DNA from: an uncultured Oscillospiraceae bacterium
GTDB lineage: Bacteria; Bacillota; Clostridia; UMGS1883
Direction of reading: 5' to 3'
Length of the DNA: 56,861 nt
Assembly (NCBI GenBank): GCA_964604405.1
Contig: CAZRYW010000001.1
Location: forward strand, 1 to 56,861
The notes beneath the pieces were generated by a model. It worked only from the letters and a program-made list of their open reading frames with translations. It searched no databases and was not told where the DNA came from. Positions within the stretch are counted from its first letter, which is position 1. Each line of letters begins with the position of its first letter. Made by a program: the position numbers and the translations under genes. This document shows positions 4,220-19,661 of this stretch, one piece after another.

Positions 4220-4230
4220 AAAGAGGAGTT

Positions 4231-4878
4231 ATGGGAAAATTAAAAGAATGGAGTCGGATTTTTGATGTGGCGGACAATGCCGAGTTATTCGGTGCGAGAT
4301 TGTACGAGAATAACAACAAGAATGACGGCGTTTTGTACGAGATGAAAGAAGAGGAGGGAGAGAGAAAAAGGAGCAAAGAAAAGCGGCGGAATACGCATGG
4401 CGAAACGGGAAACGGAGCATATGAGGAGTGTGTGAATTTTCGGGAAAAGATTGAAAGGAATATTGTCGAAAATATTTTGATGCAAGAGAGGTTTGAAAGA
4501 GAGGAGGCGAAAAACGATGTTTTTTACGGAATTGATGAAAGAGAAATAGGTGAAAAGCGGGCGTATGATTTGAATGAGGAACAGGAAGAGGGGTTAAGTG
4601 AAAAAATAGCGGAGTTTGCACAAAGAGGTGAAGCGGAAAAAATCGTTCGAAGAGAGGAAGACTTTTCGGGAGAGGGGATTGCAAAGGTTAAAAGAGGGCA
4701 GAGAGAAAAAATTTTGAATACGGTGACTCAAAAATATGCAGAGGCTTTGGGTAACGTGAAAATTGAGGTTACGAACAACAATACAATCGAAAAAGAAAGC
4801 GATATTGACGAGATTTCGTATCGCTTGACGCAAAAACTGTGTGAAATGATGACAAGAGGCGCAGACGGTTTGTATTGA
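4231..4878 (+). CDS. Hypothetical highly charged (E/K/R-rich) protein between terminase and portal
   Basis: ORF 4216..4878 overlaps the terL stop and the start of the portal ORF. ATG 4231 follows AAGAGGAG. I recognise no family. Confidence 0.5.
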   Translation: MGKLKEWSRIFDVADNAELFGARLYENNNKNDGVLYEMKEEEGERKRSKEKRRNTHGETGNGAYEECVNFREKIERNIVENILMQERFEREEAKNDVFYGIDEREIGEKRAYDLNEEQEEGLSEKIAEFAQRGEAEKIVRREEDFSGEGIAKVKRGQREKILNTVTQKYAEALGNVKIEVTNNNTIEKESDIDEISYRLTQKLCEMMTRGADGLY

Positions 4879-4895
4879 CGGAAAGGTGGATATGT

Positions 4896-6254
4896 GTGAG
4901 TATCTGGAGAAATGTGACGGAAGAAGTTGTTGAGAAGCTTGAAAGAGACGGCGCTTGCATGAGCGAAAAGGAATTTTTTGAAGCGGAGATAGCTTATTGG
5001 AAGAGGGACAAGCGATACAAGAGCATGATTGACGGTGAAAGGTATTTTCGGGGAGAGCACGATATATTGAAAAACGAGAGAACCGCAATCGGTCGTGACG
5101 GAAAACTGAAAAAAGTGGATAATTTGCCGAATAATCGTGTGGTGGACAATCAGTACCAGAGAATGGTGAATCAGAAAGTGAACTATTTGATGGGGCGGGA
5201 ATTTGTGATAGAGGGCGAAAACGACGATTACGTGCGTATTTTGAAGAAAAATCTCGGACGTGATTTCAGAAGATTGATGAAGTGTGTTTTGAGAGATGCC
5301 ATAAACATGGGTATCGGTTGGCTGTATTTGTATGCCGATGAACAAGGGAAGTTGAAGTTTAAAAGAATTCCGTCGTATGAAATGATTGCGTATTGGAAAG
5401 ACGAAGAACATACCGAATTGGACTGCGCGTTGAGAGTGTATACGATAGAGGGGTATAAGGGAAAAGAGAGTTGCACTCGTGAAATTGCCGAGCTTTATTC
5501 GAAAGATAAGGTCGAAGTTTTTGAGATTGAAGACGGAATACTGAAAAAGACGGGAGAAAGCGGGTATTTTACACAGGGGAGGATTCCGATTGCGGCATTT
5601 AAATACAACGAAAAAGAAATACCGTTGATAGATCGGGTGAAGCCGTTGCAGGACGCATTGAACAAGACGCTGTCGGATTTTAAAAACAACATGGAGGAAG
5701 ACGCAAGAAATACGATATTGGTGCTGCAAAATTATGACGGAACGGATTTGGGTGAGTTCAGACAAAATCTTGCCGCATACGGAGCGGTTAAAGTGAAGAG
5801 CGTGGACGGAACGCCGGGGGATATTAAAACTTTAAATACAGAGTTTGACTGCGAAAACTATTCGGTATTAACGAATTTGCTTAAAAATGCCATTGTGGAG
5901 AATGCGATGGGATATGACGCAAAAGGTGACAAGATGGGCAATAATCCCAATCAGCTTGTTATGAAAGCGATGTTCTCGGATATTGACCTTGATATGAGTG
6001 AGGCGGAAATCGAGTTTGAAAGCGGTTTTTACAGATTGTGTGAAATCGTGAACGAGTATTTGGAAATATTCGGGCAGGGATATTTTGAAGAGGAACGGGT
6101 GCGAATCATATTTAACAAAGATTGTTTGATAAACGAGAGCGAAGCTATCGACAACTGTATAAAAAGCAGTGATATGCTAAGTGAGGAAACGGTGCTGTTG
6201 ATGCATCCGTGGGTAAACGATGTGAAAAGAGAATTGAAAAATAAGGGGTGCTGA
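4896..6254 (+). CDS. Phage portal protein (SPP1 gp6-like)
   Basis: About 450 aa, in portal position, with typical N-terminal strings (YFRGEHDI, NNRVVDNQY..VNQKVNYLMG). The start could be TTG 4875, GTG 4896 (after AAAGGTGGA) or ATG 4959. Confidence 0.8.
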   Translation: MSIWRNVTEEVVEKLERDGACMSEKEFFEAEIAYWKRDKRYKSMIDGERYFRGEHDILKNERTAIGRDGKLKKVDNLPNNRVVDNQYQRMVNQKVNYLMGREFVIEGENDDYVRILKKNLGRDFRRLMKCVLRDAINMGIGWLYLYADEQGKLKFKRIPSYEMIAYWKDEEHTELDCALRVYTIEGYKGKESCTREIAELYSKDKVEVFEIEDGILKKTGESGYFTQGRIPIAAFKYNEKEIPLIDRVKPLQDALNKTLSDFKNNMEEDARNTILVLQNYDGTDLGEFRQNLAAYGAVKVKSVDGTPGDIKTLNTEFDCENYSVLTNLLKNAIVENAMGYDAKGDKMGNNPNQLVMKAMFSDIDLDMSEAEIEFESGFYRLCEIVNEYLEIFGQGYFEEERVRIIFNKDCLINESEAIDNCIKSSDMLSEETVLLMHPWVNDVKRELKNKGC

Positions 6255-6255
6255 A

Positions 6256-6678
6256 ATGGAAAGAGAAGAACTTTTGGAGTTGGGTATCGAAGAAGATGTC
6301 TGCGAGAAGATAATGGAAAAAATTTCGAAGATGGAAGAAGATTGTGAAAGAAAAATCTCGGATGTGAAAAAGGAAAGTGAAATAGAGATTGCGCTGTATG
6401 AAAGCGGAGCGAGAAATATTAAGGCGGTGAAAGCCCTTATAGACAAGGAGGGAGACGTAAAGGAGCAACTGCAAAGACTAAAAAGCGAAAGCGAGACAAG
6501 TTTTTTGTTCGGAAGCGAAAGACGAAGCTTTAAGCCGGGAACAAGCTCTAATAGATTGCCCGATACAAAGAAAAACGATTTTGAAGCGAGACTTTCGAAT
6601 GCGAGAAAACAAAAAAACACGCTCGAAGCGATAAAAATTAAGAAGCAGGCTGCCAATGAGGGGATAATGCTTCTTTGA
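6256..6678 (+). CDS. Phage scaffolding protein (GP20-like)
   Basis: 140-aa acidic, coiled-coil-like protein containing NIKAVKALIDKEG, located between portal and capsid. Confidence 0.65.
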   Translation: MEREELLELGIEEDVCEKIMEKISKMEEDCERKISDVKKESEIEIALYESGARNIKAVKALIDKEGDVKEQLQRLKSESETSFLFGSERRSFKPGTSSNRLPDTKKNDFEARLSNARKQKNTLEAIKIKKQAANEGIMLL

Positions 6679-6741: not shown

Positions 6742-7698
6742 ATGGCAGTAGTAACAGGAGTAGGTACAAGTTGGAATTTGCCCAATTATGCGGGGGAATT
6801 GTTTACGGCGGATGCGAGTCAGACACCGCTTCTTTCGATGATAGGCTCTCTTACGGGAGGCAGACAGACGACAACAAGCGAATTCCCCACGGCGGTGCTT
6901 TTTGATTATCCGGAAGCGACACAACCCGCTATTTCGGAATCGGCATCGGTAAACGCACCGGCATCGACACTTATTGCAAGAGAACAGGAGACGAATGTGG
7001 TTCAGATTCATCAGGAGGTTGTAAATCTTACATATATGAAGATGTCGAACAGCTCCAATATGTCGGGACTTAATTCGAATGAGGCAAACAGCGTGGAGGA
7101 TGAGAAAGCGTTCCAGATTCATCATAAGCTTGTGAAAATAGCACGTGACGTTGAACACAGTTTTATAAACGGTGTGTTCAACAAGGCGAAAAACGCACAG
7201 GACGCAAACAAGACAAGAGGTTTGATAGAATTGACGAAAAGCGGCACGACAATCGACGCGGAGGGCGGAGTGCTCACGAAGAGTATGCTTGATTCGCTGT
7301 TTCGTAAAATGGCCGAAGCGGGAGCGTATTTTGATAACATGGTGATGCTTTTGCCCGCTTATCAGAAACAGATGATTACGGATATTTATGCGAGTCAGTT
7401 TAATGCGACGATGGGTGCGAGAGAAAATATCGGCGGAGTTAACGTGACGGAAATCGAGACGGATTTTTGTCGTATGGGCATTGTGTGGGACAGATTTATG
7501 CCTAAGGATACGATTTTGGTTGCAGACGTGGCACATATTGCACCTGTGTTCCAGGCAGTACCCGAAAAGGGCGTTGTTTTCGAAGAACAACTTGCGAAAA
7601 CCGGTGCAAGCGATATGATTCAGATTTATTCTCAGATCGGACTTGCGCACGGACCTGCGTTCTTGCACGGCTCGATAACGAATCTCAGCGCTGAATAA
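6742..7698 (+). CDS. Phage major capsid protein
   Basis: 318 aa. A strong RBS (AGGAGG) precedes it, it sits in capsid position after the scaffold, and its N-terminus (NLPNYAGELF...TPLLSMIG) is typical of one major capsid protein family. Confidence 0.75.
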   Translation: MAVVTGVGTSWNLPNYAGELFTADASQTPLLSMIGSLTGGRQTTTSEFPTAVLFDYPEATQPAISESASVNAPASTLIAREQETNVVQIHQEVVNLTYMKMSNSSNMSGLNSNEANSVEDEKAFQIHHKLVKIARDVEHSFINGVFNKAKNAQDANKTRGLIELTKSGTTIDAEGGVLTKSMLDSLFRKMAEAGAYFDNMVMLLPAYQKQMITDIYASQFNATMGARENIGGVNVTEIETDFCRMGIVWDRFMPKDTILVADVAHIAPVFQAVPEKGVVFEEQLAKTGASDMIQIYSQIGLAHGPAFLHGSITNLSAE

Positions 7699-7707
7699 GG
7701 TGATTGA

Positions 7708-8055
7708 ATGGATTTGGATGCATTGAGACAAAGGCTCTCGGACATGGGTTTTGAGGTTGAAGAAAACGAAGAGGAAGAGCTTGAAAGAGCATGGGAAAGA
7801 GCCGAAACGGGAATCAGAAATACCGTGAATTGCGAAAAAGTTCCGGAAGAATTGAGGTTTACGCTTTTGGATATTGCGGCGGGAGAATATCTTCTTGCCG
7901 CCAAGAGCAAAACCGGAGGCGACGGAGTGAAGAGCGTTTCGGAGGGGGACGTGTCGGTAACGTTTGAAGAAATGAACGATACCGACAGGTTGATAGACCG
8001 TCTTCTCGAAAGCGGAAGAGAGGAAATGCTCTCTTTCAGGAGGCTTGTATGGTAG
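7708..8055 (+). CDS. Head-tail connector / DNA-packaging (gp6-like) protein
   Basis: 115 aa, acidic, located immediately after the capsid gene. The call rests on position and size. Confidence 0.5.
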   Translation: MDLDALRQRLSDMGFEVEENEEEELERAWERAETGIRNTVNCEKVPEELRFTLLDIAAGEYLLAAKSKTGGDGVKSVSEGDVSVTFEEMNDTDRLIDRLLESGREEMLSFRRLVW

Positions 8056-8417
8056 AAAAAATGAAAAAGGCTATTGAACCTTTGTACACAGAGACATGCA
8101 CGGTTTACGAAAGAGAAGCCGAGCTTGAGGACAGAAGGACGGTTTTTAAAGAAACGGTGAGATATGAGAATATCCCGTGCAGGGTTTCGATGAAGGCATA
8201 TCTTTTCGGAGAAAATGCGGGAAGCGAGAAAAAGGGGTATTTGAACGTCGGCAAGAAAGCGAAGATTTTTGTGCCGCCCGAATACGAAATAAAACCCGGA
8301 AGCCGAATCGAAGTGAAATCAAACGGCAAATCGGTTGTGTATGCAAAAAGCGGGCAGATGAGCTTTTATGCATCGCACAACGAGGTGACGGTGGAAACGG
8401 AAAAGAATTTTGCATAG
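8049..8417 (+). CDS. Head-tail adaptor / head-closure protein (XkdH-position)
   Basis: 122 aa, overlaps the previous stop by 7 nt. The call is positional. Confidence 0.45.
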   Translation: MVEKMKKAIEPLYTETCTVYEREAELEDRRTVFKETVRYENIPCRVSMKAYLFGENAGSEKKGYLNVGKKAKIFVPPEYEIKPGSRIEVKSNGKSVVYAKSGQMSFYASHNEVTVETEKNFA

Positions 8418-8428
8418 GGGGATGAAAG

Positions 8429-8866
8429 ATGCCACATGAGCTGAGAAAAGCCGTTGCGGAGAAGATTTTTGAACATTTTGAGGGGAAATATCCCGTATAT
8501 ACGGAAAAAATCAATCAAAATCTTGTGAAGCCGTGTTTTTTTGCAAAGATAAGCAATATTGAAAAGATTAATCTTTTGGGCGGAAGATTTTTTTTGAGAT
8601 GTGAGGTTGAGGTGAGCTTTGTTTTGCAAGGCGAAAGCGAAAACCATTTGGCGGAAAGTGTTTCGGGAGAACTTTTCGGTGTTTTGAATTTTGTGAAAAT
8701 AGGTTCGGTGAAGCTTTTCGGAAGAAGGATGAATTGGACGAAGGAAGACGGATATGTTACGGTGCGAGTGAGTTACGATATTTTCGAAAAGGAAGAAAAA
8801 GAAGAGACGGCTATGATGGAAAAAATAGTTTTGGAGGAGAAAATCGGTGGAATATACGAAGGATGA
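8429..8866 (+). CDS. Tail completion / tail terminator-like protein (XkdI/J-position)
   Basis: 145 aa. The string YPVYTEKINQNLVKPCFF resembles tail-terminator family N-termini. The call is largely positional. Confidence 0.45.
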   Translation: MPHELRKAVAEKIFEHFEGKYPVYTEKINQNLVKPCFFAKISNIEKINLLGGRFFLRCEVEVSFVLQGESENHLAESVSGELFGVLNFVKIGSVKLFGRRMNWTKEDGYVTVRVSYDIFEKEEKEETAMMEKIVLEEKIGGIYEG

Positions 8867-8996
8867 GTTGAAAAAAAGTGAGCGATTCAAACACAAAAGA
8901 GATCTTATAGAAGCATTGTTTGATGAAGACGAAACATATGAAATTGAAGAAGTGGAAGAAATGACGGAGAGATTTTTGAAAGGAAGTGTGCGATAG
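8847..8996 (+). CDS. Small (49 aa) acidic hypothetical protein upstream of the sheath gene
   Basis: This ORF is not in the track because it is under 60 aa. GTG 8847 lies 7 nt after GGAGGAG (8833-8839). The frame stays open to TAG 8994-8996, which abuts the sheath ATG at 8997. Confidence 0.4.
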   Translation: MEYTKDELKKSERFKHKRDLIEALFDEDETYEIEEVEEMTERFLKGSVR

Positions 8997-10301
8997 ATGG
9001 CTTTGGGCGGAGGCACGTTTACAAATTACAATAAGGTTTTGCCGGGCACGTATATAAATTTTGTGTCGGCACTTTCGGCATCGGGAGAGGTGTCGGAGCG
9101 AGGCGTGTGCGCAGTTGCGATGGAGCTTGACTGGGGAGAAGAAGATGACTTCTTTTGTGTGACGGCAGAAGATTTTTATTCGAAAAGCGTGAAAATTTTC
9201 GGGTATGATTATACGCATAATAAAATGAAATGTTTGAGAGATTTGTTTTTGAATGCATCAAAGGTTTATGTGTACAGACTCGGAAACGGTGTGAAAGCAA
9301 GTAACGATTTGGCGCAGGCACTTTATGCGGGAGTGTGCGGAAACAACATAAAAATCAAAGTGAGCGAAAGCATTGATGACGACGGATTTTTTGATGTGTA
9401 TACATATTACAATAATGTGTGCAAGGACAGACAAACTGTGAAAAATGCGGCGGATTTGAAAGACAATGATTTCGTGACATGGAAAACGGAAAAAGCGCTT
9501 GCGATTTGCGGAGCGACAGCTTTGTCGGGAGGAACAAACGCCACCGTTACGGGGGAGGATTATCAGAAGTTTCTCGATAAATGCGAGAGTATCAGCTTTA
9601 ATGTGCTGGCGGCGGCAACGAAAAACGAGAGCGTTAACTCGCTTGTTGCGGCGTATACAAAGAGAATGAGAGAAGAGAGAGGAATTAAATTCCAGAGCGT
9701 ACTTTACAAAACGGAAGCGGACGACATGGGCGTAATCAACGTGGAAACGAGTGTGTCGGATAAAGCTTTCGGAGAGGAAAGTTTTGTGTGGTTCGTTGCG
9801 GGGGCCGAAGCGGGATGTGAGATTTCGAAAAGTCTTACAAACAGAGTGTATAACGGCTCTTTTACATTGGGACCGTCGCTGTCGCAGAGCGATTTGGAAA
9901 AAAGCATTGAAAAAGGCAAATTCGTCGCACACAAAGTTGACGACGAATGGAGAATTTTGTCGGATATAAATTCGCTTGTGACACTCTCAAGTGAGGTCGG
10001 TGATGTTTTTAAGGAAAATCAAACAATCAGAATCATAGATCAGATTGCATGTGATGACGCAAAGCTTTTCAAGACGAAGTATTTGGGAGTGGTTCCGAAT
10101 GACGAAGCGGGAAGAATATCGCTTTGGAACGATATTACGGAGCACAGAAAGACGTTGGTGCAGATGAGAGCCATAGAACCGTTTAAGGATGAGGACATAG
10201 AAGTTAAAAAGGGAAAAAGCAAAACAAGCGTTGTTATACAAAGTAAGATTTGTCCGATAAATTCGATGACACAGCTGTATATTTCAACGACGGTGGAATA
10301 G
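8997..10301 (+). CDS. Contractile tail sheath protein (XkdK-like)
   Basis: 434 aa with the N-terminus GGGTFTNYNKVLPGTYINF, characteristic of PBSX-type sheath proteins. The tube gene follows. Confidence 0.85.
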   Translation: MALGGGTFTNYNKVLPGTYINFVSALSASGEVSERGVCAVAMELDWGEEDDFFCVTAEDFYSKSVKIFGYDYTHNKMKCLRDLFLNASKVYVYRLGNGVKASNDLAQALYAGVCGNNIKIKVSESIDDDGFFDVYTYYNNVCKDRQTVKNAADLKDNDFVTWKTEKALAICGATALSGGTNATVTGEDYQKFLDKCESISFNVLAAATKNESVNSLVAAYTKRMREERGIKFQSVLYKTEADDMGVINVETSVSDKAFGEESFVWFVAGAEAGCEISKSLTNRVYNGSFTLGPSLSQSDLEKSIEKGKFVAHKVDDEWRILSDINSLVTLSSEVGDVFKENQTIRIIDQIACDDAKLFKTKYLGVVPNDEAGRISLWNDITEHRKTLVQMRAIEPFKDEDIEVKKGKSKTSVVIQSKICPINSMTQLYISTTVE

Positions 10302-10311
10302 GAGGAATAAA

Positions 10312-10785
10312 ATGGCGACGATTACAATGAACGGCAGCGACGCTGTCTCCGCATCGCTTGCGGAATGTTATGTGACGGTCGGATCGAACCGATACAATTT
10401 TATGCAGATGATTAATTTTAAGGCATCAATCACGAAAAACAAAAACACGATACCGATTTTGGGGCAGACGGGTCGAGGAAACAAGGCTAACGGTTGGAGC
10501 GGAGTTTTTAAAGGCAAAGCGCACTACAATCAGTCGATTTTCAGAAGTATGCTGATGGAATATAAGGAAAGCGGGGAGGATATTTATTTTGATATTCAGG
10601 TGACAAACAACGACCCCGCAAGCAGCGCCGGAAATCAGACGATGGTGTTTACGGGATGCAATATCGACGGAGGTATTTTGGCGGCATTTGACGCAGAGGG
10701 TGATTATTTGACGGAGGAAATCACGGGAACGTTTGAAGATTTTAAAATGCCGAAGAAGTTCGGATTGCTGGACGGAATGATGTGA
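10312..10785 (+). CDS. Tail tube protein (XkdM-like)
   Basis: 157 aa, immediately after the sheath, with XkdM-like size and sequence character. Confidence 0.8.
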   Translation: MATITMNGSDAVSASLAECYVTVGSNRYNFMQMINFKASITKNKNTIPILGQTGRGNKANGWSGVFKGKAHYNQSIFRSMLMEYKESGEDIYFDIQVTNNDPASSAGNQTMVFTGCNIDGGILAAFDAEGDYLTEEITGTFEDFKMPKKFGLLDGMM

Positions 10786-10794
10786 TAAAAAAAG

Positions 10795-10818
10795 ACCTGC
10801 GGGACTTTTCCCGCAGGT
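10795..10818. promoter_or_regulatory. Perfect 10-bp hairpin between the tube and chaperone genes
   Basis: acctgcggga (10795-10804), cttt loop, tcccgcaggt (10809-10818). The A-run lies upstream and there is no T-run downstream on the + strand. Confidence 0.6.
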
Positions 10819-10834: not shown

Positions 10835-11248
10835 ATGGACGGTTTGAAATATTTTTTGAAAGAGAACAAGGCGAGAAGCGAAAACGTTTTTTATAAGGCG
10901 ACGGAGTCGATGAAAGACGAGAACGGTGAAACGCTCGCCTGGGAAATAAGACATATCACGACGAGTGAAGACGAAAGAATCAGAGAAGAATGTACGAAGC
11001 GCGAAAACGGTAAAGTGAGAATAGATTACGGAAAATATTTGAAAAAGCTGGCGGTGGCAAGTGTCGTTTATCCTCCGCTTTACAATGCTCGGTTGCAGGA
11101 TTCGTACAATGTGAAAAATCCCGAAGAATTGTTGAATGAAATGATAGACAATCCCGGAGAATATCAGGAGTTTGTGAGGTTTTTGCAGAAGATTAACGGA
11201 TTTGACGTGAGCATGACGGAGAGGGTGGAAAAAGCAAAAAACTCATAA
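10835..11248 (+). CDS. Tail assembly chaperone (XkdN-like), zero-frame product
   Basis: 137 aa in the position between the tube gene and the expected tape-measure gene. It ends in the slippery sequence A AAA AAC (11236-11242). Confidence 0.75.
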   Translation: MDGLKYFLKENKARSENVFYKATESMKDENGETLAWEIRHITTSEDERIREECTKRENGKVRIDYGKYLKKLAVASVVYPPLYNARLQDSYNVKNPEELLNEMIDNPGEYQEFVRFLQKINGFDVSMTERVEKAKNS

Positions 11249-11394
11249 GTGAAGGTGACGGAGACGCAGTTTATGCGTACTGGTGCCTTCACAATTTGAA
11301 GATGCTTCCGAGTGAATTTGTGAACTTGGATAAAAACGAAAAAGCTTTTATCATTGCCGCTGTGGAAGTTTTTTTGGAAAGGACGGATGTGTGA
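10835..11394 (+). CDS. Tail assembly chaperone, predicted -1 frameshift fusion product (G-T type)
   Basis: A -1 slip at A AAA AAC (11236-11242) opens a 51-codon frame (LISEGDGDAVYAYWCLHNLKMLPSEFVNLDKNEKAFIIAAVEVFLERTDV) that ends at TGA 11392-11394. Confidence 0.6.
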
Positions 11395-12030
11395 ATGTAC
11401 ATGCTCTATATTGACAAAATACTTTTTCCCGTTGCACCGGGGAAAATTGTTGTCGAAACACAGATGGGGAATAAAACGATACGACTTGCGGACGGAAGCG
11501 AGGCGTCGCTGAGAGGCGGAAAAGGATTGAGAAAAATTTCGTTTGAAGTTTTGTTGCCACAGGTGCAATACCCTTTCGCACGATATGAAAGCGGGTTTAA
11601 GGACGCATTGTATTTTGCCGACGAACTCGAGAGAATCGCAAGCGAAAACAAACCTGTTTGGCTTGATATATACAAAACGTTTCCCGATATGAGCAAGACT
11701 TATTTGACTAACATTCAGGTATTGATTGAAAATATAAAAATCACGGAAGACGCCGAAAACGGGGCTGACGTGAAAGCGGAAATTGTTTTGAGGGAATACA
11801 GAAATGTTCAAACAAAAATCACCGAGGATAAAAAAAGCGTATCTGCCCAAACGAGGACGGACTCGTTTGAAGTGCCGCAATACTATACGGTTTGTTCGGG
11901 AGACAGTTTGTGGTATATTGCGAAAAAATATTTGGATGACTCGTCGATGTATACATATTTGGCGCAGATAAATTCGATAAAGTATCCGTATACGATTTAT
12001 GTGGGGCAAAAGTTGAAGTTGAGGGAATGA
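11395..12030 (+). CDS. LysM-domain tail protein (XkdP-like)
   Basis: C-terminal LysM motif (YYTVCSGDSLWYIAKKYL...YLAQINSIKYPYTIYVGQKLKL) and a position ahead of the XkdQ-like gene. Confidence 0.8.
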   Translation: MYMLYIDKILFPVAPGKIVVETQMGNKTIRLADGSEASLRGGKGLRKISFEVLLPQVQYPFARYESGFKDALYFADELERIASENKPVWLDIYKTFPDMSKTYLTNIQVLIENIKITEDAENGADVKAEIVLREYRNVQTKITEDKKSVSAQTRTDSFEVPQYYTVCSGDSLWYIAKKYLDDSSMYTYLAQINSIKYPYTIYVGQKLKLRE

Positions 12031-12031
12031 T

Positions 12032-13063
12032 ATGCAGACGAACATAAAAACGAGGTTGAATTATTATAAAGGGGTATACAGAGACGGATTTTCGGCAGAG
12101 TCGGACGGCGACAGACTTGAAATTTTCGTGAAAAGCAAGCTTAAGGTTTATAAAATAATTCCCGTGGAAAAGGTGAGCATAGATATGGAAGAGTTTACGG
12201 CAACCAAAGCGAGGTTCACGGTGAAAAAAGACGACGTGATAAGCTTTAATCAAGGGGATGGCGTGAGCATAAAGTACATGGGCGAAGGATTGTTTTTCGG
12301 ATATGTGTTCACAAAATGCAGAGAAAGAGAAAATTTGATAGATGTTGTTTGTTATGACCAGCTGAGGTACATGAAAAACAGACGCACGTACACGAGAGGG
12401 AAAATGAGACTCGATGAAATCGTCAACAAAATCGCAGACGACTATTTTTTGAAAAAAGGTGAAATAGAAAAGTGCGGCGTGAGTTTAGAATCGGTTGCGG
12501 CAGACAACGTCAGTTTGTTGGATGTGGTGAAGAAAGCCTGCAAGGACGTGAAAGACAAGAGCGGGGAAAAATATATTGTCTTTGACGATTGCGGTGAAAT
12601 AGTGCTGAAAAACGAAAAAAACATGATGACGGATATTGTGATAGATGAAGAGTGCGTCGGAAATTACAAATATACGGATACAATAGACGAAGGCGTTTAC
12701 AACATGGTTGAGGTGTATTCGGATAAAAAACGATACAATACGAGATATACGGCGACGGTGAGCGATAAAGAAAATATGGAAAAGTGGGGAACGTTGATTT
12801 TGTCGAAAAAAGCGACAAAGTTCGGAGAAGAATTGTCGGAAGCGAAAACTCTTTTGAAGGAATATAACAGAATACAAAGAGAGATTATCGTGAAAAACGT
12901 TCCCGGAGACACAAGAATAATACCCGGAGGAAGTTTGTATGTCGGATTCAGTATGGGAGATCTGAATTTGGACGGATATATGCGGGTGAAAAAAGCGGTG
13001 CATGTTTTTGAAAACAATACGTATTTGTGTGATGTTTATTTGGACGGGAGTGAGCTGGAATGA
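12032..13063 (+). CDS. Baseplate hub / late-control-D-like protein (XkdQ-like)
   Basis: 343 aa in a position and at a size matching XkdQ/YqbQ. Confidence 0.65.
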   Translation: MQTNIKTRLNYYKGVYRDGFSAESDGDRLEIFVKSKLKVYKIIPVEKVSIDMEEFTATKARFTVKKDDVISFNQGDGVSIKYMGEGLFFGYVFTKCRERENLIDVVCYDQLRYMKNRRTYTRGKMRLDEIVNKIADDYFLKKGEIEKCGVSLESVAADNVSLLDVVKKACKDVKDKSGEKYIVFDDCGEIVLKNEKNMMTDIVIDEECVGNYKYTDTIDEGVYNMVEVYSDKKRYNTRYTATVSDKENMEKWGTLILSKKATKFGEELSEAKTLLKEYNRIQREIIVKNVPGDTRIIPGGSLYVGFSMGDLNLDGYMRVKKAVHVFENNTYLCDVYLDGSELE

Positions 13064-13359
13064 ATATTGCGGAGGCGATAAAAAAATGTGCGCTTGACGC
13101 ATATAATGCGGCGCTTCCTTGTGAAGTTTGTGTGGGGAGCGTTGTGTGCGAAGACCCGATTGAAATAAAATGCGGGGAGTTTTGTTTGTCGGGAGATTTG
13201 CTCGACGTTTGCGATCATCTTTTGAAAAAAGAGTGTTCGTTTAAGTATGCGGGTACGGAAAAAGTGATTGTGGTGAACGAGGGGATAAAAAAAGGTGACG
13301 AAGTTGTTCTCATGAGGAAAAACGGCGGAGTGGGGTATGTTGCGATAGGGAAAATGTGA
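13060..13359 (+). CDS. Small baseplate/spike-associated protein (XkdR-like, DUF2577-type), unusually Cys-rich
   Basis: 99 aa, overlaps the previous stop (ATGA), has a C-terminal GDEVVLMRKNGG..YVAIGK pattern, and contains 8 Cys. Confidence 0.6.
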   Translation: MNIAEAIKKCALDAYNAALPCEVCVGSVVCEDPIEIKCGEFCLSGDLLDVCDHLLKKECSFKYAGTEKVIVVNEGIKKGDEVVLMRKNGGVGYVAIGKM

Positions 13360-13373
13360 TGGGAGAGTGAAAA

Positions 13374-13763
13374 ATGTTACCGATAAGCTCGATTGATGCG
13401 ACGGATGAGAGAAATAGCGAAACAAACAAGACGTTTGAAATTGATTTTGAAAACGGAAAAATCGGCGGCGTGATAGACTCGAAAGAGGCTTTGAAGCAGG
13501 CGGTGCATATTGCCGTTATTACAGAAAGATATAAATATGCGATATTTCCTCACAGCTACGGAACGGAGCTGGAAAGTGCTTTGGACGAAGGGTACGTGAA
13601 GGGGATGGGAAGAGTTAAAAACGCAATTTGCGAAAGTTTGCTTTGCGATGAAAGAATAAAAGCGGTGGAGGATTTTGAGTTTGAGCGGCACGGCGGTGCA
13701 ATGAGCGTGAAGTTTAAGGTTGTAAGTTCTTTGGGAGATATTGATGTGACGGAGGTGATTTGA
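13374..13763 (+). CDS. Baseplate wedge protein (XkdS-like, DUF2634 / gp25-W-like)
   Basis: 129 aa with the strings EALKQAVHIAVITERYKYAIFPHSYG and ERIKAVEDFEF, typical of this family. Confidence 0.7.
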   Translation: MLPISSIDATDERNSETNKTFEIDFENGKIGGVIDSKEALKQAVHIAVITERYKYAIFPHSYGTELESALDEGYVKGMGRVKNAICESLLCDERIKAVEDFEFERHGGAMSVKFKVVSSLGDIDVTEVI

Positions 13764-14803
13764 TGGCGATTACGTATGAATCGTTGCGTGAAAGCTTTTT
13801 GAAGGATATATCAGACGAGTATGACAAAAGAGAGGGTACTGTATCGTATATGATGGCGTCTGCCGTGGCGATGGCTACGATGGATATGTATGATTATATA
13901 GATAAGATGCAGAGCGAGTGTTATTTGGAGACGGCGACTGGGGCAAACCTTGAACGACTTTGTGCGATTACGGGTATCGAAAGACGGGGAGAAACGAAAG
14001 CAATCGTGAAAATCGAGGGCGGTGACGGCTTGCGATGCGGAGACAAGGTTGCTTGTGAAGATATGAGCTATACCGTGATAAGCGAGGAAGACGGTTGGTT
14101 TAAAGCGGAGGCGGATATTGCAGGAAGTGCGGCTAACGGTTATATCGGAGAGGTTGTTGCCGAAAACAGAGCGGATATTACGGATGAGATTAACATAGTG
14201 TCGATTATCGCAAAAGGAAGTGACAAAGAGGATGACGACTCTTTCAGAAAAAGATTTATCGATATGGTGAAATGCCCGGTTTGCCCCGGAAATGTGAGAT
14301 ATTACAAAGAGATTGTAGATACGATTGCGGGAATCGGAGGACGAAGAATAATTCCCGCAGAAGAGGGAGCGGGCGAAATAAGAGTTGTGATTACCGATAC
14401 TGATTATGCTGTGGCATCGGAAGATTTGGTGGATTATGTGCAGGAGGTTTTGGACCCGAAAGATAAGTCGGGACTGGGTTACGGGTTGGCACCGATAGGG
14501 CATAAGGTGAAAGTCGAAAGCGTTGAAAAGGTGAATGTTGATATTAAAGTGGAGCTGAAAGGTGTAACTACGGACGCATATTATCTGCGCTTGGCGAGAA
14601 GTCGATTGCCTGCTCTTTTTGAAAAAATCAACGAGGATTGGGATAAGACGGATTATATTGTGTTAAGAGACCGTGTAATCGAGGATTGCTTTTTGGATTT
14701 GGGTGTTGAAGACGTGAGCGTGGTATCCATAAACGAAAATGTAAACCGTTTGATTTTGAAGCCTAATCAGATATTGGGGGATGTGAGCATAAGTGGCACG
14801 TGA
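13760..14803 (+). CDS. Baseplate J-like protein (XkdT-like)
   Basis: 347 aa, overlaps the previous stop, and matches baseplate J in size and position. Confidence 0.75.
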   Translation: MMAITYESLRESFLKDISDEYDKREGTVSYMMASAVAMATMDMYDYIDKMQSECYLETATGANLERLCAITGIERRGETKAIVKIEGGDGLRCGDKVACEDMSYTVISEEDGWFKAEADIAGSAANGYIGEVVAENRADITDEINIVSIIAKGSDKEDDDSFRKRFIDMVKCPVCPGNVRYYKEIVDTIAGIGGRRIIPAEEGAGEIRVVITDTDYAVASEDLVDYVQEVLDPKDKSGLGYGLAPIGHKVKVESVEKVNVDIKVELKGVTTDAYYLRLARSRLPALFEKINEDWDKTDYIVLRDRVIEDCFLDLGVEDVSVVSINENVNRLILKPNQILGDVSISGT

Positions 14804-15227
14804 GATGGCGGTGTTTTATCCGGATTATCTGTCGGATTTTGAAGAATTGAAAGAGATATCGAATGCACAAAGAAGATGCTATCTTGCCGTACAAACCGCG
14901 GCATCGAGAGCGAAGCAGAGAATGACGTTTTATTTGAGAAGCGACGAATGGAAAGAGATACTGGAATTGAATTACGCTAATGCGGATTGGCGAGACAAAA
15001 CGTATACTATGTTGCACCGATATACGTCCGTATCGAAAGAAGAATACGAAAAGATGGTGTCAAGCAGGTTGGATGATGACTTTGTGCTGGATATTGATTA
15101 TGAAAAGAAGTCTGTTGTGCTGAAAACAACGGCGAAAAAGTACGATGTGAATAAAATCATGGGATACATCAGGGATATGTTTCCGTGCAATATGACTTTT
15201 GAAGCGGTGTATGTGAGCGAGCTGTAA
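14793..15227 (+). CDS. Baseplate/tail protein XkdU-like (DUF2313/YmfQ-type)
   Basis: About 140 aa with an N-terminal YPDYL motif, located after baseplate J. The start is GTG 14793 or ATG 14805. Confidence 0.6.
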   Translation: MAREMAVFYPDYLSDFEELKEISNAQRRCYLAVQTAASRAKQRMTFYLRSDEWKEILELNYANADWRDKTYTMLHRYTSVSKEEYEKMVSSRLDDDFVLDIDYEKKSVVLKTTAKKYDVNKIMGYIRDMFPCNMTFEAVYVSEL

Positions 15228-15233
15228 AAGATG

Positions 15234-15262
15234 TTGACAAATAATTTCTTCGGCTGTAAAAT
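15234..15262 (+). promoter_or_regulatory. Near-consensus sigma-A promoter for the lectin-metalloprotease gene
   Basis: TTGACA (15234-15239), 17-nt spacer, TAAAAT (15257-15262). Confidence 0.6.
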
Positions 15263-15294
15263 GGAGTCATATGAAAAAGGAAGGGGAAATTATA

Positions 15295-17385
15295 ATGAAA
15301 AAAGCAATATCTTTGATGCTTGCGGTTGTGATGCTGATAACTATGGCAACAATCGGAGTGAGTGCAGAGGAGATAAAAGGCTACAAGAATGCGATTTGCA
15401 CAATTGAAACCGAAGACGGGTTGTTTTTGATGCAATCGGGAAATGACAGAGGAAATGCTTTGACCGTGGGTGAAACATCCGTGAACTGGAGATTTAAAGA
15501 GTTTGCGGGCGGAAGTTATTCGATGATAAACCCGTTGGGTTTTGCCGCAGACGTTAACGGAGCATCTATGAACGAGGGCGTAAGTATCATACAATGGACG
15601 GCTACCGGTGCAAACAACCAGAGATGGATGATTGAAGAAGCGGAAGACGGCTATTGCTATATTAAGTCGGTTTTTTCGAATCTTTATTTGACATACACGG
15701 AATCTGTTGTGACACAGGAAGCGAAGGACGAAGAAAAGGAGCAACTTTGGAAAATCGAAATTGTCGGAGAATACGAACCGACGGTTGAAAAAATGCTCGA
15801 AAGCGAAGCTGCCAAGAGTCTTTCCGAATACAAGTATGAAAGACTTTGCGACTTTATCCTCTCCGGCGGAGAATTCAATCTTTTGACATATGACAAAATC
15901 GAAAAAATGATTGAAGAAAGAGATTATTTCAATTTGCCGTATGAAGAACAGGTAAGTTTTGTTGAGGAATGTTTTAAAGTTGAACCGACGAGTTTGATGT
16001 ACGGTTCGATGGCAACAAAGCTGAAAAAAGATATAAAGGTTGAATATGTCGGTATTGAAGAGGGTGCATGGCAGTCGTGGCACGGAATTCCCGAAGAAGA
16101 ACCGAGACTTTACAATATAACGATTACGGACACGGAATCCGGAGATGAGCATGTTGTGCAGTATATTTCACCGTATGATAATGATGAAGAATATGCGGCG
16201 ACAGTCGGCGAGGCGATTGCATGTTTTGAAATGCCGATAGTAAAGGTTTTGTGGAGATTTGTATACACAAGCATGAACACGTCCAGCTGGAACGGCGGTG
16301 ACGGAACTATTTGGAATAACACCGCTTACCGCGGAGACGTGAACAACATGGTGCAGATGTTTGCTCATGAGCTCGGTCATGTTATGGATAACGGCAGACA
16401 GGATACGAATGTTTGGTATCGTGCGATCGCACAGGACATGGTGCCCGTAACAGGTTACGGGAATACAAACAGATGGGAAGATTTGGCTGAATTTTCACGC
16501 CTTTATCTTTTGGCCAAGGGCGATGATGCGAGAATAGAGGCAATCGAAAAGACATATCCCGCAAGAACAAAGGCATACAAGGCTCTTTTGTATGTGCTTG
16601 ACAATGAATTTTACGCTTGTTATGAAGAAGAATACAAATCGTTGCAGTCAACAATGGGCGATTGGGACAAGAGTGCGCAGGTGATGATTTCGCTTGACGG
16701 ACAATATCTCACGGACGACAACGGAAGCCTTGTTTTTGTTGACAAAAAAGATGTAATCAAAAATTGGCAGACGTGGGAAGTATATACACAGAATGCTGGT
16801 GAAAGCGTTTTCAGAAACAAGGCAACGGGAAAATACATTACGCTTGAAGACGGAAAAGCAACTTTCGGAGAAAAGAGAGAATGGGGAATCCAATCATCGG
16901 AAGACGGATATTCGATAATAGATTCGGCAACGGGATTTGTGCTTGACGAAAATTTGTGCGTTGCATTGGAAAACGGATTGAAGATTGATATAGAGGAAGT
17001 CGGAAGAATTCCGTATACGGGAGATAAGACGATTGAACTTTCGGTAAACGGAGAAAAGATAGCTTTTACAGAGGGCGAAGGTCTTACGATGGGCAATGAA
17101 GATAACGCGTGGACTTTTGTTGCGGTGGATAAAGGATATTATCTTATTATGAACAAAGAAACTGGAAAAGTGTTTGATATTTCCGGCAACAGCACAGAAA
17201 ACGGTGCGAGTGCGATTTTGTACTCGATAACCGGAGGCGAAAATCAGCATTTTAAAATCGTTAACAATAACGACGGAACGTATAAATTGCAGCTTCGTCA
17301 CAGCGGATTGTATCTGACAAGAACAAATGACGGATTCTGTCAGAGCGACGGTTCGATGGGATATACAAACTGGATAATCAAATAA
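15295..17385 (+). CDS. Secreted multidomain protein: signal peptide, ricin-B-type lectin repeat, HEXXH zinc metalloprotease core (gluzincin, possibly ATLF/M34-like), and two further ricin-B-like repeats
   Basis: Signal peptide MKKAISLMLAVVMLITMATIGVSA. HELGH lies at 16366-16380, with EDLAEF about 40 aa downstream. QxW-type repeats are present (QRW, QLW, QTW, QHF). The start at ATG 15295 follows GGAAGGGG; the ORF track starts at 15271. Confidence 0.7.
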   Translation: MKKAISLMLAVVMLITMATIGVSAEEIKGYKNAICTIETEDGLFLMQSGNDRGNALTVGETSVNWRFKEFAGGSYSMINPLGFAADVNGASMNEGVSIIQWTATGANNQRWMIEEAEDGYCYIKSVFSNLYLTYTESVVTQEAKDEEKEQLWKIEIVGEYEPTVEKMLESEAAKSLSEYKYERLCDFILSGGEFNLLTYDKIEKMIEERDYFNLPYEEQVSFVEECFKVEPTSLMYGSMATKLKKDIKVEYVGIEEGAWQSWHGIPEEEPRLYNITITDTESGDEHVVQYISPYDNDEEYAATVGEAIACFEMPIVKVLWRFVYTSMNTSSWNGGDGTIWNNTAYRGDVNNMVQMFAHELGHVMDNGRQDTNVWYRAIAQDMVPVTGYGNTNRWEDLAEFSRLYLLAKGDDARIEAIEKTYPARTKAYKALLYVLDNEFYACYEEEYKSLQSTMGDWDKSAQVMISLDGQYLTDDNGSLVFVDKKDVIKNWQTWEVYTQNAGESVFRNKATGKYITLEDGKATFGEKREWGIQSSEDGYSIIDSATGFVLDENLCVALENGLKIDIEEVGRIPYTGDKTIELSVNGEKIAFTEGEGLTMGNEDNAWTFVAVDKGYYLIMNKETGKVFDISGNSTENGASAILYSITGGENQHFKIVNNNDGTYKLQLRHSGLYLTRTNDGFCQSDGSMGYTNWIIK

Positions 17386-17404
17386 AATCGAATAAAGTTG
17401 ACGA

Positions 17405-17441
17405 GGAGTCGGGAAAAATCAATTTCCCGATTCCTTTTTTT
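17405..17441 (+). terminator. Rho-independent terminator
   Basis: 12-bp stem ggagtcgggaaa / tttcccgattcc with a 6-nt loop, followed by T7 (17435-17441). Confidence 0.85.
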
Positions 17442-17567: not shown

Positions 17568-19661
17568 ATGGCAGAAAAGAAACCTTTGACGGAGTATTTC
17601 GGATGCAATGTGTTTTCCGATGAAGTGATGCGTGAAATGCTCAGTAAAGATACATACGAAGAGTTTAAAAAAGGCGGGCCTTTGACGATGAAAATTGCCG
17701 ATGAAATTGCGGAAGCAATGAAAAACTGGGCAATGAGTAAGGGTGCAACGCATTATACGCATCTGTTTCTTCCGCTGACGGGGCTGACAGCCGAAAAACA
17801 CGACGCTTTTATAAATCCCGACCCGACAACGGGAAAGGCTATTATGGAGTTTACGGGCGAACAGCTTGTAAAAGGCGAAAGTGACGCATCGAGTTTCCCC
17901 GCAGGCGGTATCAGAGCAACGTTTGAGGCGAGAGGATATACAACATGGGATACGACGTCTCCCGCATTTTTGAAAGAAGACGCTGCCGGTGTGACACTTT
18001 GTATTCCCACGGCATTTTGTTCATATACGGGTGAAGCACTCGATAAAAAAACTCCTCTTCTTCGTTCGTGCGATGCACTTTCGAATGCGGCGGTGAGAGT
18101 GTTGAGACTTTTGGGTGACGATGATGTGAAAAAAGTAATTGCAACCGTCGGCCCCGAACAGGAATATTTTTTGGTGTCGAAAGCACATGTTGAAGCGAGA
18201 AAAGACATAAAAATTACTGGAAGAACGCTTTTCGGAGCACCTGCGCCGAAAGGACAGGAAATGGATGACGCATATTACGGTACACTTCGTGAAAATGTTG
18301 CGCTCTTCATGAAAGAGGTTGACACGGAACTTTACAAGATGGGAATTTTCGCAAAGACGAAACACAACGAAGTGGCTCCTTGTCAGCATGAATTGGCGTG
18401 CGTATATTCGGCGGCAAATACGGCGGTTGACTCCAACTACATGGTTATGGAAACGCTGAAAAAATGTGCAGAGCATTACGGATTGGTGTGCCTTTTGCAC
18501 GAGAAGCCTTTTAAAGGGCTTAACGGTTCGGGCAAGCATAACAACTGGGCAATAAGCACGGATACGGGTAAAAATCTTTTGAAGCCCGGAAAAGACCCGT
18601 TGCACAATTTGGAATTTTTGGTGTTCCTTGCAGTTGTGATGGAAGCGGTGTCGCTGCACGGCGGACTTTTGAGAGCAAGTGCGGGAAACCCGTCAAACGA
18701 CCACAGACTGGGCGGACATGAAGCACCGCCGAGCGTGATTTCGATGTTTTTGGGAGATGCGCTCGACAAGGTTTGCGAAAGCATAATAAAAGGCGAGGAC
18801 GAAGTGAGACTGGATCGAGGAACACTCGATTTGGGGGCGTCGGCTCTTCCCGCATTCAAACGTGACGATACGGACAGAAACAGAACGAGTCCTTTTGCTT
18901 TTACTGGTAATAAGTTTGAATTCAGAACGGTGGGTTCATCGGCATCTATTGCCGGACCGAATACGGTTATCAACTCGATTGTCGCAGACGGACTTTGGAA
19001 GTTTGCGGAAAAAATCGAAAATGCCGAAGATAAGAGAAAAGCGGCATACTCTGTTGTGCGTGATATCATAACAGAGCATTATCCGAGAATAGTCTTTAAC
19101 GGCAACGGCTACAGCGAAGAATGGGCAAAAGAAGCCGAAAAGAGAGGCTTGCCGATACTCAAAAGTTCGATAGAATCTTACGGCGAATATACGAAAGAAG
19201 AAAGCGTGAAGATGTTCGAATCGTTGGGAGTTTATACTAAATCGGAGCTTGAGAGCCGTTATGAAATAAGAATGGAAAAGTATTTCAAGCTGAATAATTA
19301 CGAATGTTTGACGATGGTTGACATGGCGAGAAAGGAAATTATTCCCGCTGTGGGCAGTTATTTGAAAAGTCTTGCGAAGTCGGTGTGCGAGATGAGAGAA
19401 CTCGGAATGGCGGCAAAGGTTGAAAACGATCTTGTCGAAAAGATAAAACCTTTGTATGAAAAGCTTTATTTTACAACAAATGAGTTTGAAGTTGAAATAC
19501 GAAAAGCCGAAGAAATGAATGTGACAGACGGTGCACACTACATGCATGATGTTGTGTTGCCGCTTGCGGAGAAGGTGAGAGAGTATGCAGACGCCATCGA
19601 ACCGATGGTGAGCAAGGAATACTGGCCGATGCCGACATATGCGGATATATTGTTTTATTGA
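17568..19661 (+). CDS. glnN: Glutamine synthetase, type III
   Basis: 697 aa, which is GSIII length, with GSIII-like N-terminal (YFGCNVFSD) and catalytic regions (HNEVAPCQHE, NGSGKHNNWA). Confidence 0.9.
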   Translation: MAEKKPLTEYFGCNVFSDEVMREMLSKDTYEEFKKGGPLTMKIADEIAEAMKNWAMSKGATHYTHLFLPLTGLTAEKHDAFINPDPTTGKAIMEFTGEQLVKGESDASSFPAGGIRATFEARGYTTWDTTSPAFLKEDAAGVTLCIPTAFCSYTGEALDKKTPLLRSCDALSNAAVRVLRLLGDDDVKKVIATVGPEQEYFLVSKAHVEARKDIKITGRTLFGAPAPKGQEMDDAYYGTLRENVALFMKEVDTELYKMGIFAKTKHNEVAPCQHELACVYSAANTAVDSNYMVMETLKKCAEHYGLVCLLHEKPFKGLNGSGKHNNWAISTDTGKNLLKPGKDPLHNLEFLVFLAVVMEAVSLHGGLLRASAGNPSNDHRLGGHEAPPSVISMFLGDALDKVCESIIKGEDEVRLDRGTLDLGASALPAFKRDDTDRNRTSPFAFTGNKFEFRTVGSSASIAGPNTVINSIVADGLWKFAEKIENAEDKRKAAYSVVRDIITEHYPRIVFNGNGYSEEWAKEAEKRGLPILKSSIESYGEYTKEESVKMFESLGVYTKSELESRYEIRMEKYFKLNNYECLTMVDMARKEIIPAVGSYLKSLAKSVCEMRELGMAAKVENDLVEKIKPLYEKLYFTTNEFEVEIRKAEEMNVTDGAHYMHDVVLPLAEKVREYADAIEPMVSKEYWPMPTYADILFY

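Follow-up and report, generated by a model that had tools for sequence, protein, structure and literature searches.

The gene cluster at positions 2375–17436 of contig CAZRYW010000001.1 (assembly GCA_964604405.1), analysed here within a window of 56,861 nucleotides from an uncultured Oscillospiraceae bacterium, is a streamlined head and contractile-tail cluster derived from a clostridial myophage of the PBSX or phiMMP01 type. Its canonical tape-measure protein (TMP) was lost in the common ancestor of a clade of related loci from the slot between the G/GT tail assembly chaperone and the LysM protein gene xkdP, and the resulting TMP-less junction is almost certainly an ancient, selected state. 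A 215-aa acidic protein encoded between the large terminase and portal genes (4231–4878; hereafter p215) very probably derives from a TMP, judging by its C-terminal sequence. Overall, we favour with moderate confidence a domesticated relative of PBSX in which p215 is a miniaturised, relocated TMP and the tail is a very short contractile one.

Direct reading of the junction places the stop codon of the XkdN-like open reading frame (ORF; 10835–11248; chaperone G, PF08890, E 6e-42; phrog_389) at TAA 11246–11248. A slippery heptamer, A_AAA_AAC at 11236–11242, would give a −1 programmed frameshift into the T part of the GT chaperone (11236–11394, from translation and PHROG matches), which reads KKLISEGDG...FLERTDV over 52 codons (KKLISEGDGDAVYAYWCLHNLKMLPSEFVNLDKNEKAFIIAAVEVFLERTDV) and stops at TGA 11392–11394. 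The ATG of the 211-aa LysM protein lies at 11395, abutting this stop (TGAATG), with gtgTGAATGtac at 11389–11400 spanning both; the LysM gene (11395–12030) encodes an XkdP-like baseplate or hub protein with a Dit-like N-terminal domain (a weak Pfam Dit_like match), a C-terminal LysM domain (Pfam) and a match to phrog_380. A first-pass annotation of the window, made from its letters alone, had given these same coordinates and had argued that no gene could fit between the chaperone and LysM genes. Both points hold, since the reading frames run unbroken across the junction, the chaperone-to-xkdP interval contains the 52-aa T part alone, and no XkdO-type long TMP lies between xkdN and xkdP in the window cluster. 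The annotation had further stated that no ORF of TMP size or character exists in 2.4–17.4 kb. As to size this is correct, the longest ORFs being those of a 704-aa ricin-lectin protein and the 459-aa portal, whereas as to character it is not, since ORF 4231–4878 ends in a TMP C-terminal module. In the remainder of the window no TMP-like ORF was found, all of the ORFs scanned being housekeeping genes (topA, dnaB, tilS, ftsH, priA, rsmB, a PASTA kinase and others). The LysM or XkdQ-like protein had been named as a conceivable TMP in disguise, and by Pfam neither is one, whilst the sheath, tube and baseplate genes are intact, as had been claimed.

A single-sequence peptide-pattern genome scan gave no relative and an exact-sequence lookup of the LysM protein returned no record, whilst an alignment-based scan recovered relatives. 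The clade treated here consists of the window and 14 further loci from independent genome or metagenome assemblies, labelled as uncultured Oscillospiraceae or Clostridia bacterium and in many cases from ruminant guts. LysM homologues form a tight clade at 49–86% identity, beyond which identity falls to ≤40% (Lysinibacillus, Lachnospiraceae and others). Gene order is the same in 14/14 clade loci, and the host flanks (rpmE on the left; glnA-III, a RelA/SpoT-domain gene, rimM and trmD on the right) are the same wherever the contig extends that far. In 13/14 clade loci 152–156 nt separate the XkdN match from the XkdP match, and the T part ends 0–5 nt before the xkdP start in 14/15, the exception in both respects being locus L009 (422 nt). 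In L009 a ~277-nt non-coding, GC-rich insert (9235–9510) fills the exact space from T-part stop to xkdP start and holds two similar motif copies (…CCCCGCCCCTACGACC… and …CCCCCGCCCTACGACC…); it may be a small repeat element and is no remnant of a TMP. Alignment with PBSX-like clusters elsewhere, as the first-pass annotation had proposed, showed that outgroups do hold a TMP between the chaperone and LysM genes: seven outgroup loci have 1.8–4.8 kb between XkdN and XkdP, with a TMP ORF of 530–937 aa. In locus L006 (6388–10008; Lysinibacillus sp. B2A1 chromosome) the TMP region comprises three ORFs of 333, 414 and 390 codons, stop to stop; this TMP may be pseudogenised or segmented, so that here a PBSX-like cluster in a chromosome has had its ruler changed by a different route.

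Within the clade, identities are 81–94% for the major capsid protein (MCP), 79–89% for the tube, 68–82% for the large terminase subunit (terL), 49–73% for XkdP and 69–84% for the T part. The proportion of non-synonymous sites that differ (pN) is 0.01–0.25 for the structural genes against 0.4–0.85 for synonymous sites (pS), the latter being near saturation, and dN/dS is ~0.03–0.25 for the pairs examined with dS estimable. Of all the genes in the element the MCP is the best conserved (dN/dS 0.03–0.09), and the tube is similarly constrained (0.03–0.07); the terS dN/dS value for the window against L008 was disregarded, as the tblastn segment crosses a stop. Distances between elements correlate with distances between the host type III glutamine synthetases (GS-III; Mantel r = 0.78, p = 2e-4). 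Because 15 diverged loci share the junction, the flanks and the signature of selection, the TMP-less junction dates to the common ancestor of the clade, and selection has preserved the cluster intact ever since.

The chaperone has kept its frameshift signal, as the first-pass annotation had noted, and the signal looks functional. The heptamer AAAAAAC is identical in 15/15 loci and is followed by a T part of 51–53 aa. A 42-nt hairpin (11250–11291 in the window) starts 7 nt downstream of the heptamer and has a folding energy of −19 to −23 kcal/mol in all 15 loci (RNAfold); in the 15-sequence alignment 96.9% of its cells are paired, compared to 34–46% in controls with slid partners, and one pair covaries perfectly (GC in 8, CG in 4, UA in 3) through changes at the third codon position on each side. 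The T-part region has a pS of 0.29–0.55, compared to 0.5–0.85 in neighbouring genes; the hairpin probably explains this lower synonymous divergence, and further RNA structure downstream possibly adds constraint at the nucleotide level. The established job of lambda-type G/GT proteins is to hold the TMP, and the careful conservation of G/GT together with its recoding signal argues that the chaperone of this cluster still has a client.

The candidate for that client, p215, has a net charge of −12 and contains 18.6% Glu. Its last 41 residues match positions 665–705 of 706 in phrog_1068, 'tail length tape measure protein' (E 5e-6), a C-terminal match found in 12/14 members of the p215 family. By BLASTP, residues 144–215 of p215 correspond to residues 871–936 of the 937-aa TMP of locus L007 (E 3e-4). 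Using hhalign, the p215 family aligned end to end with outgroup TMP C-termini (94% probability, E 1.4e-7) and with residues 719–761 of the 762-residue TMP of phage phiMMP01 (93%, E 2.6e-7; 40% identity over 43 residues). When 1.84 billion representatives were searched exhaustively by profile, 58 proteins were returned, mostly the short family together with a few long proteins matched at their extreme C-termini. Amongst the latter, P0178 (707 aa) and P0180 (720 aa), both Pfam TMP_3 proteins, matched solely over their last ~45 residues, whilst P0179 (674 aa), which occupies the canonical slot between chaperone and XkdP in a PBSX-like cluster, matched over its last ~145. A scan of Joint Genome Institute (JGI) metagenomes gave only two loci, L083 and L084, and in both of them the stretch resembling p215 closes a canonical TMP ORF just before xkdP. 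Searches with p215 gave no match by tblastn against 50,697 phage records and no relative in an IMG/VR scan, and the family profile had no hit among PDB sequences even at E = 10.

All 13 loci covering the terL–portal interval, the window included, have an ORF there that closes with this C-terminal module, measuring 205–308 aa in the other 12. Across the family, length ranges from 205 to 472 aa; the N-terminus (MGxIxEW..F.A) is conserved, the C-terminal ~65 aa are very conserved (..IKIE..N.....D.D.I...LT.RLCEMM.RGADG.Y), and the middle is variable, charged and rich in insertions and deletions. With its conserved ends, indel-rich middle and repeat expansion, the family appears from these comparisons to evolve as a ruler does. 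At the long extreme, the terL–portal ORF of locus L078 (3764–5182; P0163) is 472 aa long and carries tandem 12-residue repeats (EKAEKLYPEMLE, about four copies); if a p215-type protein is the ruler, the tail in the L078 lineage would be about twice as long.

We consider it reasonably likely that p215 functions as the ruler, and a mechanism can be proposed on this basis. The G/GT chaperone, made through the −1 frameshift at AAAAAAC and its hairpin, would hold p215 on the XkdP/XkdQ hub during polymerisation of tube and sheath. The C-terminal module of p215 would dock in the baseplate hub, as is presumed for the homologous end of full-length TMPs; we infer this docking, the C-terminal part of the TMP being encoded immediately upstream of xkdP in phages. 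The middle of p215, which is short, variable, charged and helix-prone, would lie with the rest of the protein in the tube lumen and set tail length, polymerisation halting after a few rings, as 215 residues at 1.5 Å each would give a rod of at most ~30 nm. Particles with such tails would then be made.

Several observations weigh against a ruler function or against p215 being the TMP of this cluster. Homology to TMPs is detectable only over the last ~65 residues (as many as ~145 in the comparison with P0179); p215 carries the C-terminal module of a TMP and neither the position nor the core domain of one, as the ORF at 4216–4878 has no Pfam family at E ≤ 0.01, including the TMP core domains TMP_3, TMP_2 and PhageMin_Tail, and none of the TMPs examined has its gene between terL and portal. 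A resemblance of the p215 N-terminus (MGxIxEW...) to those of TMPs (MGSIRSS..., MATIRTA...) was dropped, as the hhalign comparison was not significant. No clear TMP-like periodicity of aromatic residues was seen in the p215 family. The AlphaFold2 (AF2) model places helices at residues 63–99, 123–131, 156–172 and 189–211 with low confidence (mean predicted local distance difference test score, pLDDT, 48; predicted template modelling score, pTM, 0.16), too low to establish an extended helical rod. The TMP search covered the 57-kb window and ~10 kb on each side of the matches in relatives, so that a full-length TMP may lie elsewhere in the genome, and the element belongs to uncultured organisms and is known here from its genes alone.

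These observations bear on two alternatives that the first-pass annotation had raised, both of which retain some probability but now rank below a relocated miniature TMP in cis. The tail might assemble with no TMP at all, its length being set otherwise or not at all, and p215 would be a leftover hub plug or an accessory of the head or of packaging. The restriction of TMP likeness to the C-terminal module, the missing core domain, the place of the gene in the head and packaging part of the operon and the uninformative AF2 model are all in keeping with this; we nevertheless think it unlikely, given the strict conservation of the G/GT chaperone with its frameshift signal, the TMP-like pattern of conserved ends around a middle that varies in length and has expanded by tandem repeats, and the precedent of a workable TMP of ~216 aa in the gene transfer agent (GTA) of Rhodobacter capsulatus, RcGTA. 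Alternatively, a full-length TMP could be supplied in trans, encoded at a second site in the genome or by a prophage resident in the same cell. In GTAs some structural or auxiliary genes often lie apart from the main cluster, the Faecalibacterium candidate FpGTA having two operons (PMC12946183), and the span of our inspection given above leaves room for such a gene. We regard supply in trans as distinctly improbable, as the rest of the window holds only housekeeping genes amongst the ORFs scanned, the cluster itself already carries a TMP-derived gene, kept at every locus that covers the terL–portal interval, and a TMP carried by prophages would not be a dependable supply for 15 diverged species.

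The remaining explanations concern the junction itself. Within the window alone, the abutting TGAATG does resemble a precise excision, and the first-pass annotation had considered a clean recent deletion that should abolish tail assembly, leaving a decaying, non-functional prophage remnant. This is refuted by the occurrence of the same junction in 15 orthologous loci that have diverged by 27–51% in XkdP, and it is further contradicted by structural genes that are all intact, with pN far below pS for every one of them, and by co-divergence of the element with its host; we consider it very improbable. An assembly artefact, in which a repeat-rich TMP had collapsed out of the contig, was also considered in that annotation, and repeats in TMP genes can indeed break short-read assemblies, yet the same junction is recovered within a few bases in 15 independent assemblies from various studies and assemblers, with continuous reading frames across it, and the probability of an artefact is negligible. 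A miniaturised, relocated TMP in a domesticated element remains the reading that we prefer.

The origin of the element is best seen by comparison with its nearest MCP relatives outside the clade, the phage or prophage clusters L080 and L081, in which the MCP is ~68% identical, TerL 65%, the sheath 47–52% and the tube 55–58%. In L080 and L081 the head genes run terS (GP3_package), terL, an adjacent portal, a Mu-F minor head protein, a scaffold of 207–208 aa and MCP, followed by a gp10-like protein, terminator, sheath, tube, chaperone, a TMP of 709–881 aa, LysM, YqbQ and onward. Compared to these clusters, the element has shed its Mu-F and gp10-like genes as well as the canonical TMP and has gained the TMP-derived ORF between terL and portal. 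Its scaffold (140 aa versus ~207 aa) and portal (459 aa versus ~502 aa) are shorter, and these reductions together with the loss of Mu-F hint that the capsid is smaller or simpler, as it is in other GTAs. L081 encodes a D5-type primase, whereas the element has no replication gene of such a kind, and a Gp48/YmfQ-like gene that follows Baseplate_J in L007, L077 and phiMMP01 is not present in it. As far as gene content and order can tell, relocation and streamlining are both apparent in the comparison with L080 and L081.

The element is likely to be a domesticated, particle-producing one of a GTA-like or PBSX-like kind rather than a decaying prophage. It consists of structural and packaging genes only, without genes for integration, lysogeny or replication, lies amongst host genes, and occupies one locus across the species sampled (15 loci), with host co-divergence and purifying selection. 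An R-type tailocin was rejected, as terminase, portal, scaffold and MCP genes are present and the MCP is the most conserved gene, and a phage satellite (a phage-inducible chromosomal island, PICI, or its capsid-forming form, cf-PICI) was rejected on the grounds of the missing integrase and replication genes, the full tail module and the fixed locus.

The genes of the cluster, all on the + strand, were assigned using Pfam and PHROGs. The first, encoding the small terminase subunit terS (Terminase_2; 2375–2962; PF03592, E 1e-25), directly follows rpmE, as its orthologues do in L002, L004, L078 and others. It is followed by terL (2981–4219; Terminase_3 and Terminase_3C) and, after p215, by the SPP1 gp6-like portal (4875–6254; 459 aa; PF05133, E 7e-79), the true start of which is possibly ATG 4892, the shortened 140-aa scaffolding protein (6256–6678; Phage_scaffold), the SU10-type MCP (6742–7698; PF17236, E 2e-60), two head-tail adaptors (7708–8055 and 8049–8417; phrog_132 and phrog_615) and the tail terminator (8429–8866; PF20765). 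A small 49-aa ORF (8847–8996, from the ORF list) lies between terminator and sheath; the same slot holds a gene of 50–51 aa in L001, L002 and L004, and the small ORF between terminator and sheath in L004 and L005 has a weak PF26160 match. The tail module then meets the description of a PBSX-like one, with XkdK sheath, XkdM, XkdN with its −1 frameshift, XkdP, XkdQ, XkdR, XkdS and XkdT in order: the contractile sheath (8997–10301; four sheath Pfam domains) and the XkdM/DUF2001 tube (10312–10785; PF09393, E 7e-46) precede the chaperone, and XkdP is followed by the Pfam-assigned YqbQ/XkdQ (12032–13063), DUF2577/XkdR (13060–13359), sheath initiator/XkdS (13374–13763) and Baseplate_J/XkdT (13760–14803). 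Between the tube and chaperone genes there is a perfect 10-bp GC-rich hairpin (ACCTGCGGGA…TCCCGCAGGT; 10795–10818) with no T-run on the + strand, which may act by stabilising the mRNA or by attenuation and so set how much tube is expressed relative to chaperone.

In the slot after Baseplate_J lies a fast-evolving 144-aa protein (14793–15227) with no Pfam or PHROG family and 23–45% identity to its relatives. The last gene of the cluster (15271–17385) encodes the 704-aa protein with ricin-type lectin repeats (three stretches of RicinB_lectin_2), which is 56–69% identical in relatives and is probably a tail fibre or receptor-binding protein; just upstream of the gene, at 15234–15262, stands a strong promoter-like site, TTGACA-17-TAAAAT. 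Its orthologue in L004 (13880–16546) and L005 (8885–11551) is an 888-aa protein with an extra S-layer homology (SLH) domain, the sequence of which suggests binding to cell-wall polymers of Gram-positive cells. A terminator-like hairpin with a T-run (17403–17436, + strand) closes the cluster ahead of the host type III glutamine synthetase gene.

On the left the cluster is flanked by the host genes rpmE (2075–2293, − strand) and, just upstream of it, spo0A (1151–1930), the presence of which places the host in an endospore-forming lineage. The gene upstream of rpmE varies among relatives, being DUF6062 in L002 and L078 and AcnX in L004, so that only rpmE is a conserved left flank. Downstream of the cluster lie the type III glutamine synthetase gene (glnA, GS-III Pfam domains; 17568–19661), the RelA/SpoT-domain gene, rimM, trmD and addB. 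No integrase, repressor, replication or lysis gene was found by Pfam and PHROG scans between rpmE and glnA, and an Rfam scan of the whole window gave no match.

If the preferred reading is true, the element represents a natural miniaturisation of a contractile-tail machine, with the ruler cut to little more than its end modules, and the middle of p215 would link TMP length, the G/GT chaperone and the polymerisation of sheath and tube in a way that can be tested by engineering. It would also be a clear case of phage domestication in a Gram-positive host, with a fixed locus, host co-divergence, purifying selection and gene loss relative to phage relatives; to our knowledge, few GTA-like elements are known outside the Alphaproteobacteria. 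For annotation, the implication would be that an empty canonical TMP slot does not equal a defective tail and that the operon should first be searched for the TMP C-terminal module. The cluster is a candidate Gram-positive GTA-like cluster and offers a concrete, testable model of tail miniaturisation. More tentatively, and with somewhat less than even confidence, it may belong to an undescribed family of contractile-tailed GTAs or PBSX-like killer particles of gut and rumen Oscillospiraceae and Clostridia, in which a TMP of ~215 residues has moved to the head block; were that so, its tail is predicted to be shorter than any contractile tail known on a particle with a head. Neither this element nor any TMP-less or contractile GTA in Clostridia nor a relocated miniature TMP was described in the literature searched, the coverage of which was incomplete, making this weak evidence of novelty.

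Amongst known systems, the tail module is homologous to that of PBSX, the defective GTA-like myophage element of Bacillus subtilis (xkdK–xkdT), with the same order including a −1 frameshifted T part, and both elements are chromosomally fixed and retain head genes. PBSX spans ~28 kb, compared to ~15 kb for the cluster described here. The two differ in that the element is without an XkdO-type TMP between xkdN and xkdP and has instead the 215-aa TMP-derived gene between terL and portal, in that regulatory and lysis cassettes are missing from within its cluster, and in its head module, with an SU10-type MCP. PBSX packages 13-kb fragments of host DNA (PMC7667829, PMC12946183). The cultured Clostridioides difficile phage phiMMP01 has an annotated 762-aa TMP directly before its LysM gene, where the element has none; amongst phiMMP01/phiCDMH1-type myophages and the L080 and L081 clusters, the closest phage relatives found are L080 and L081.

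RcGTA likewise has a cluster of ~15 kb that is vertically inherited and under purifying selection, and its TMP gene stands in the canonical position after the chaperones. It resembles the element in being a structural cluster of head and tail genes only and in its very short TMP, the counterpart of which would be p215; the RcGTA TMP, g11, has 113 + 83 + 20 = 216 residues and spans five tube rings (hexamers) (PMC7296036). It differs in its non-contractile, siphovirus-type tail, its unrelated protein families and the other phylum of its host, and of the two it is RcGTA for which experiments have shown DNA packaging and transfer. FpGTA of Faecalibacterium (PMC12946183) is a candidate GTA from Gram-positive anaerobes of the gut that belong to the same order, with a compact terS–terL–portal–scaffold–MCP operon; it is set apart by being described as podovirus-like, with two operons and genes for a holin and an endolysin, and the text consulted makes no mention of a sheath, tube or XkdN chaperone (PMC12946183). 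The same paper describes abundant GTA-like DNA packaging in Oscillospiraceae, Ruminococcaceae and Christensenellaceae of the gut, most of the gene clusters that cause it not yet having been pinpointed (PMC12946183), and the element could be among the clusters behind such packaging in gut Oscillospiraceae and Christensenellaceae.

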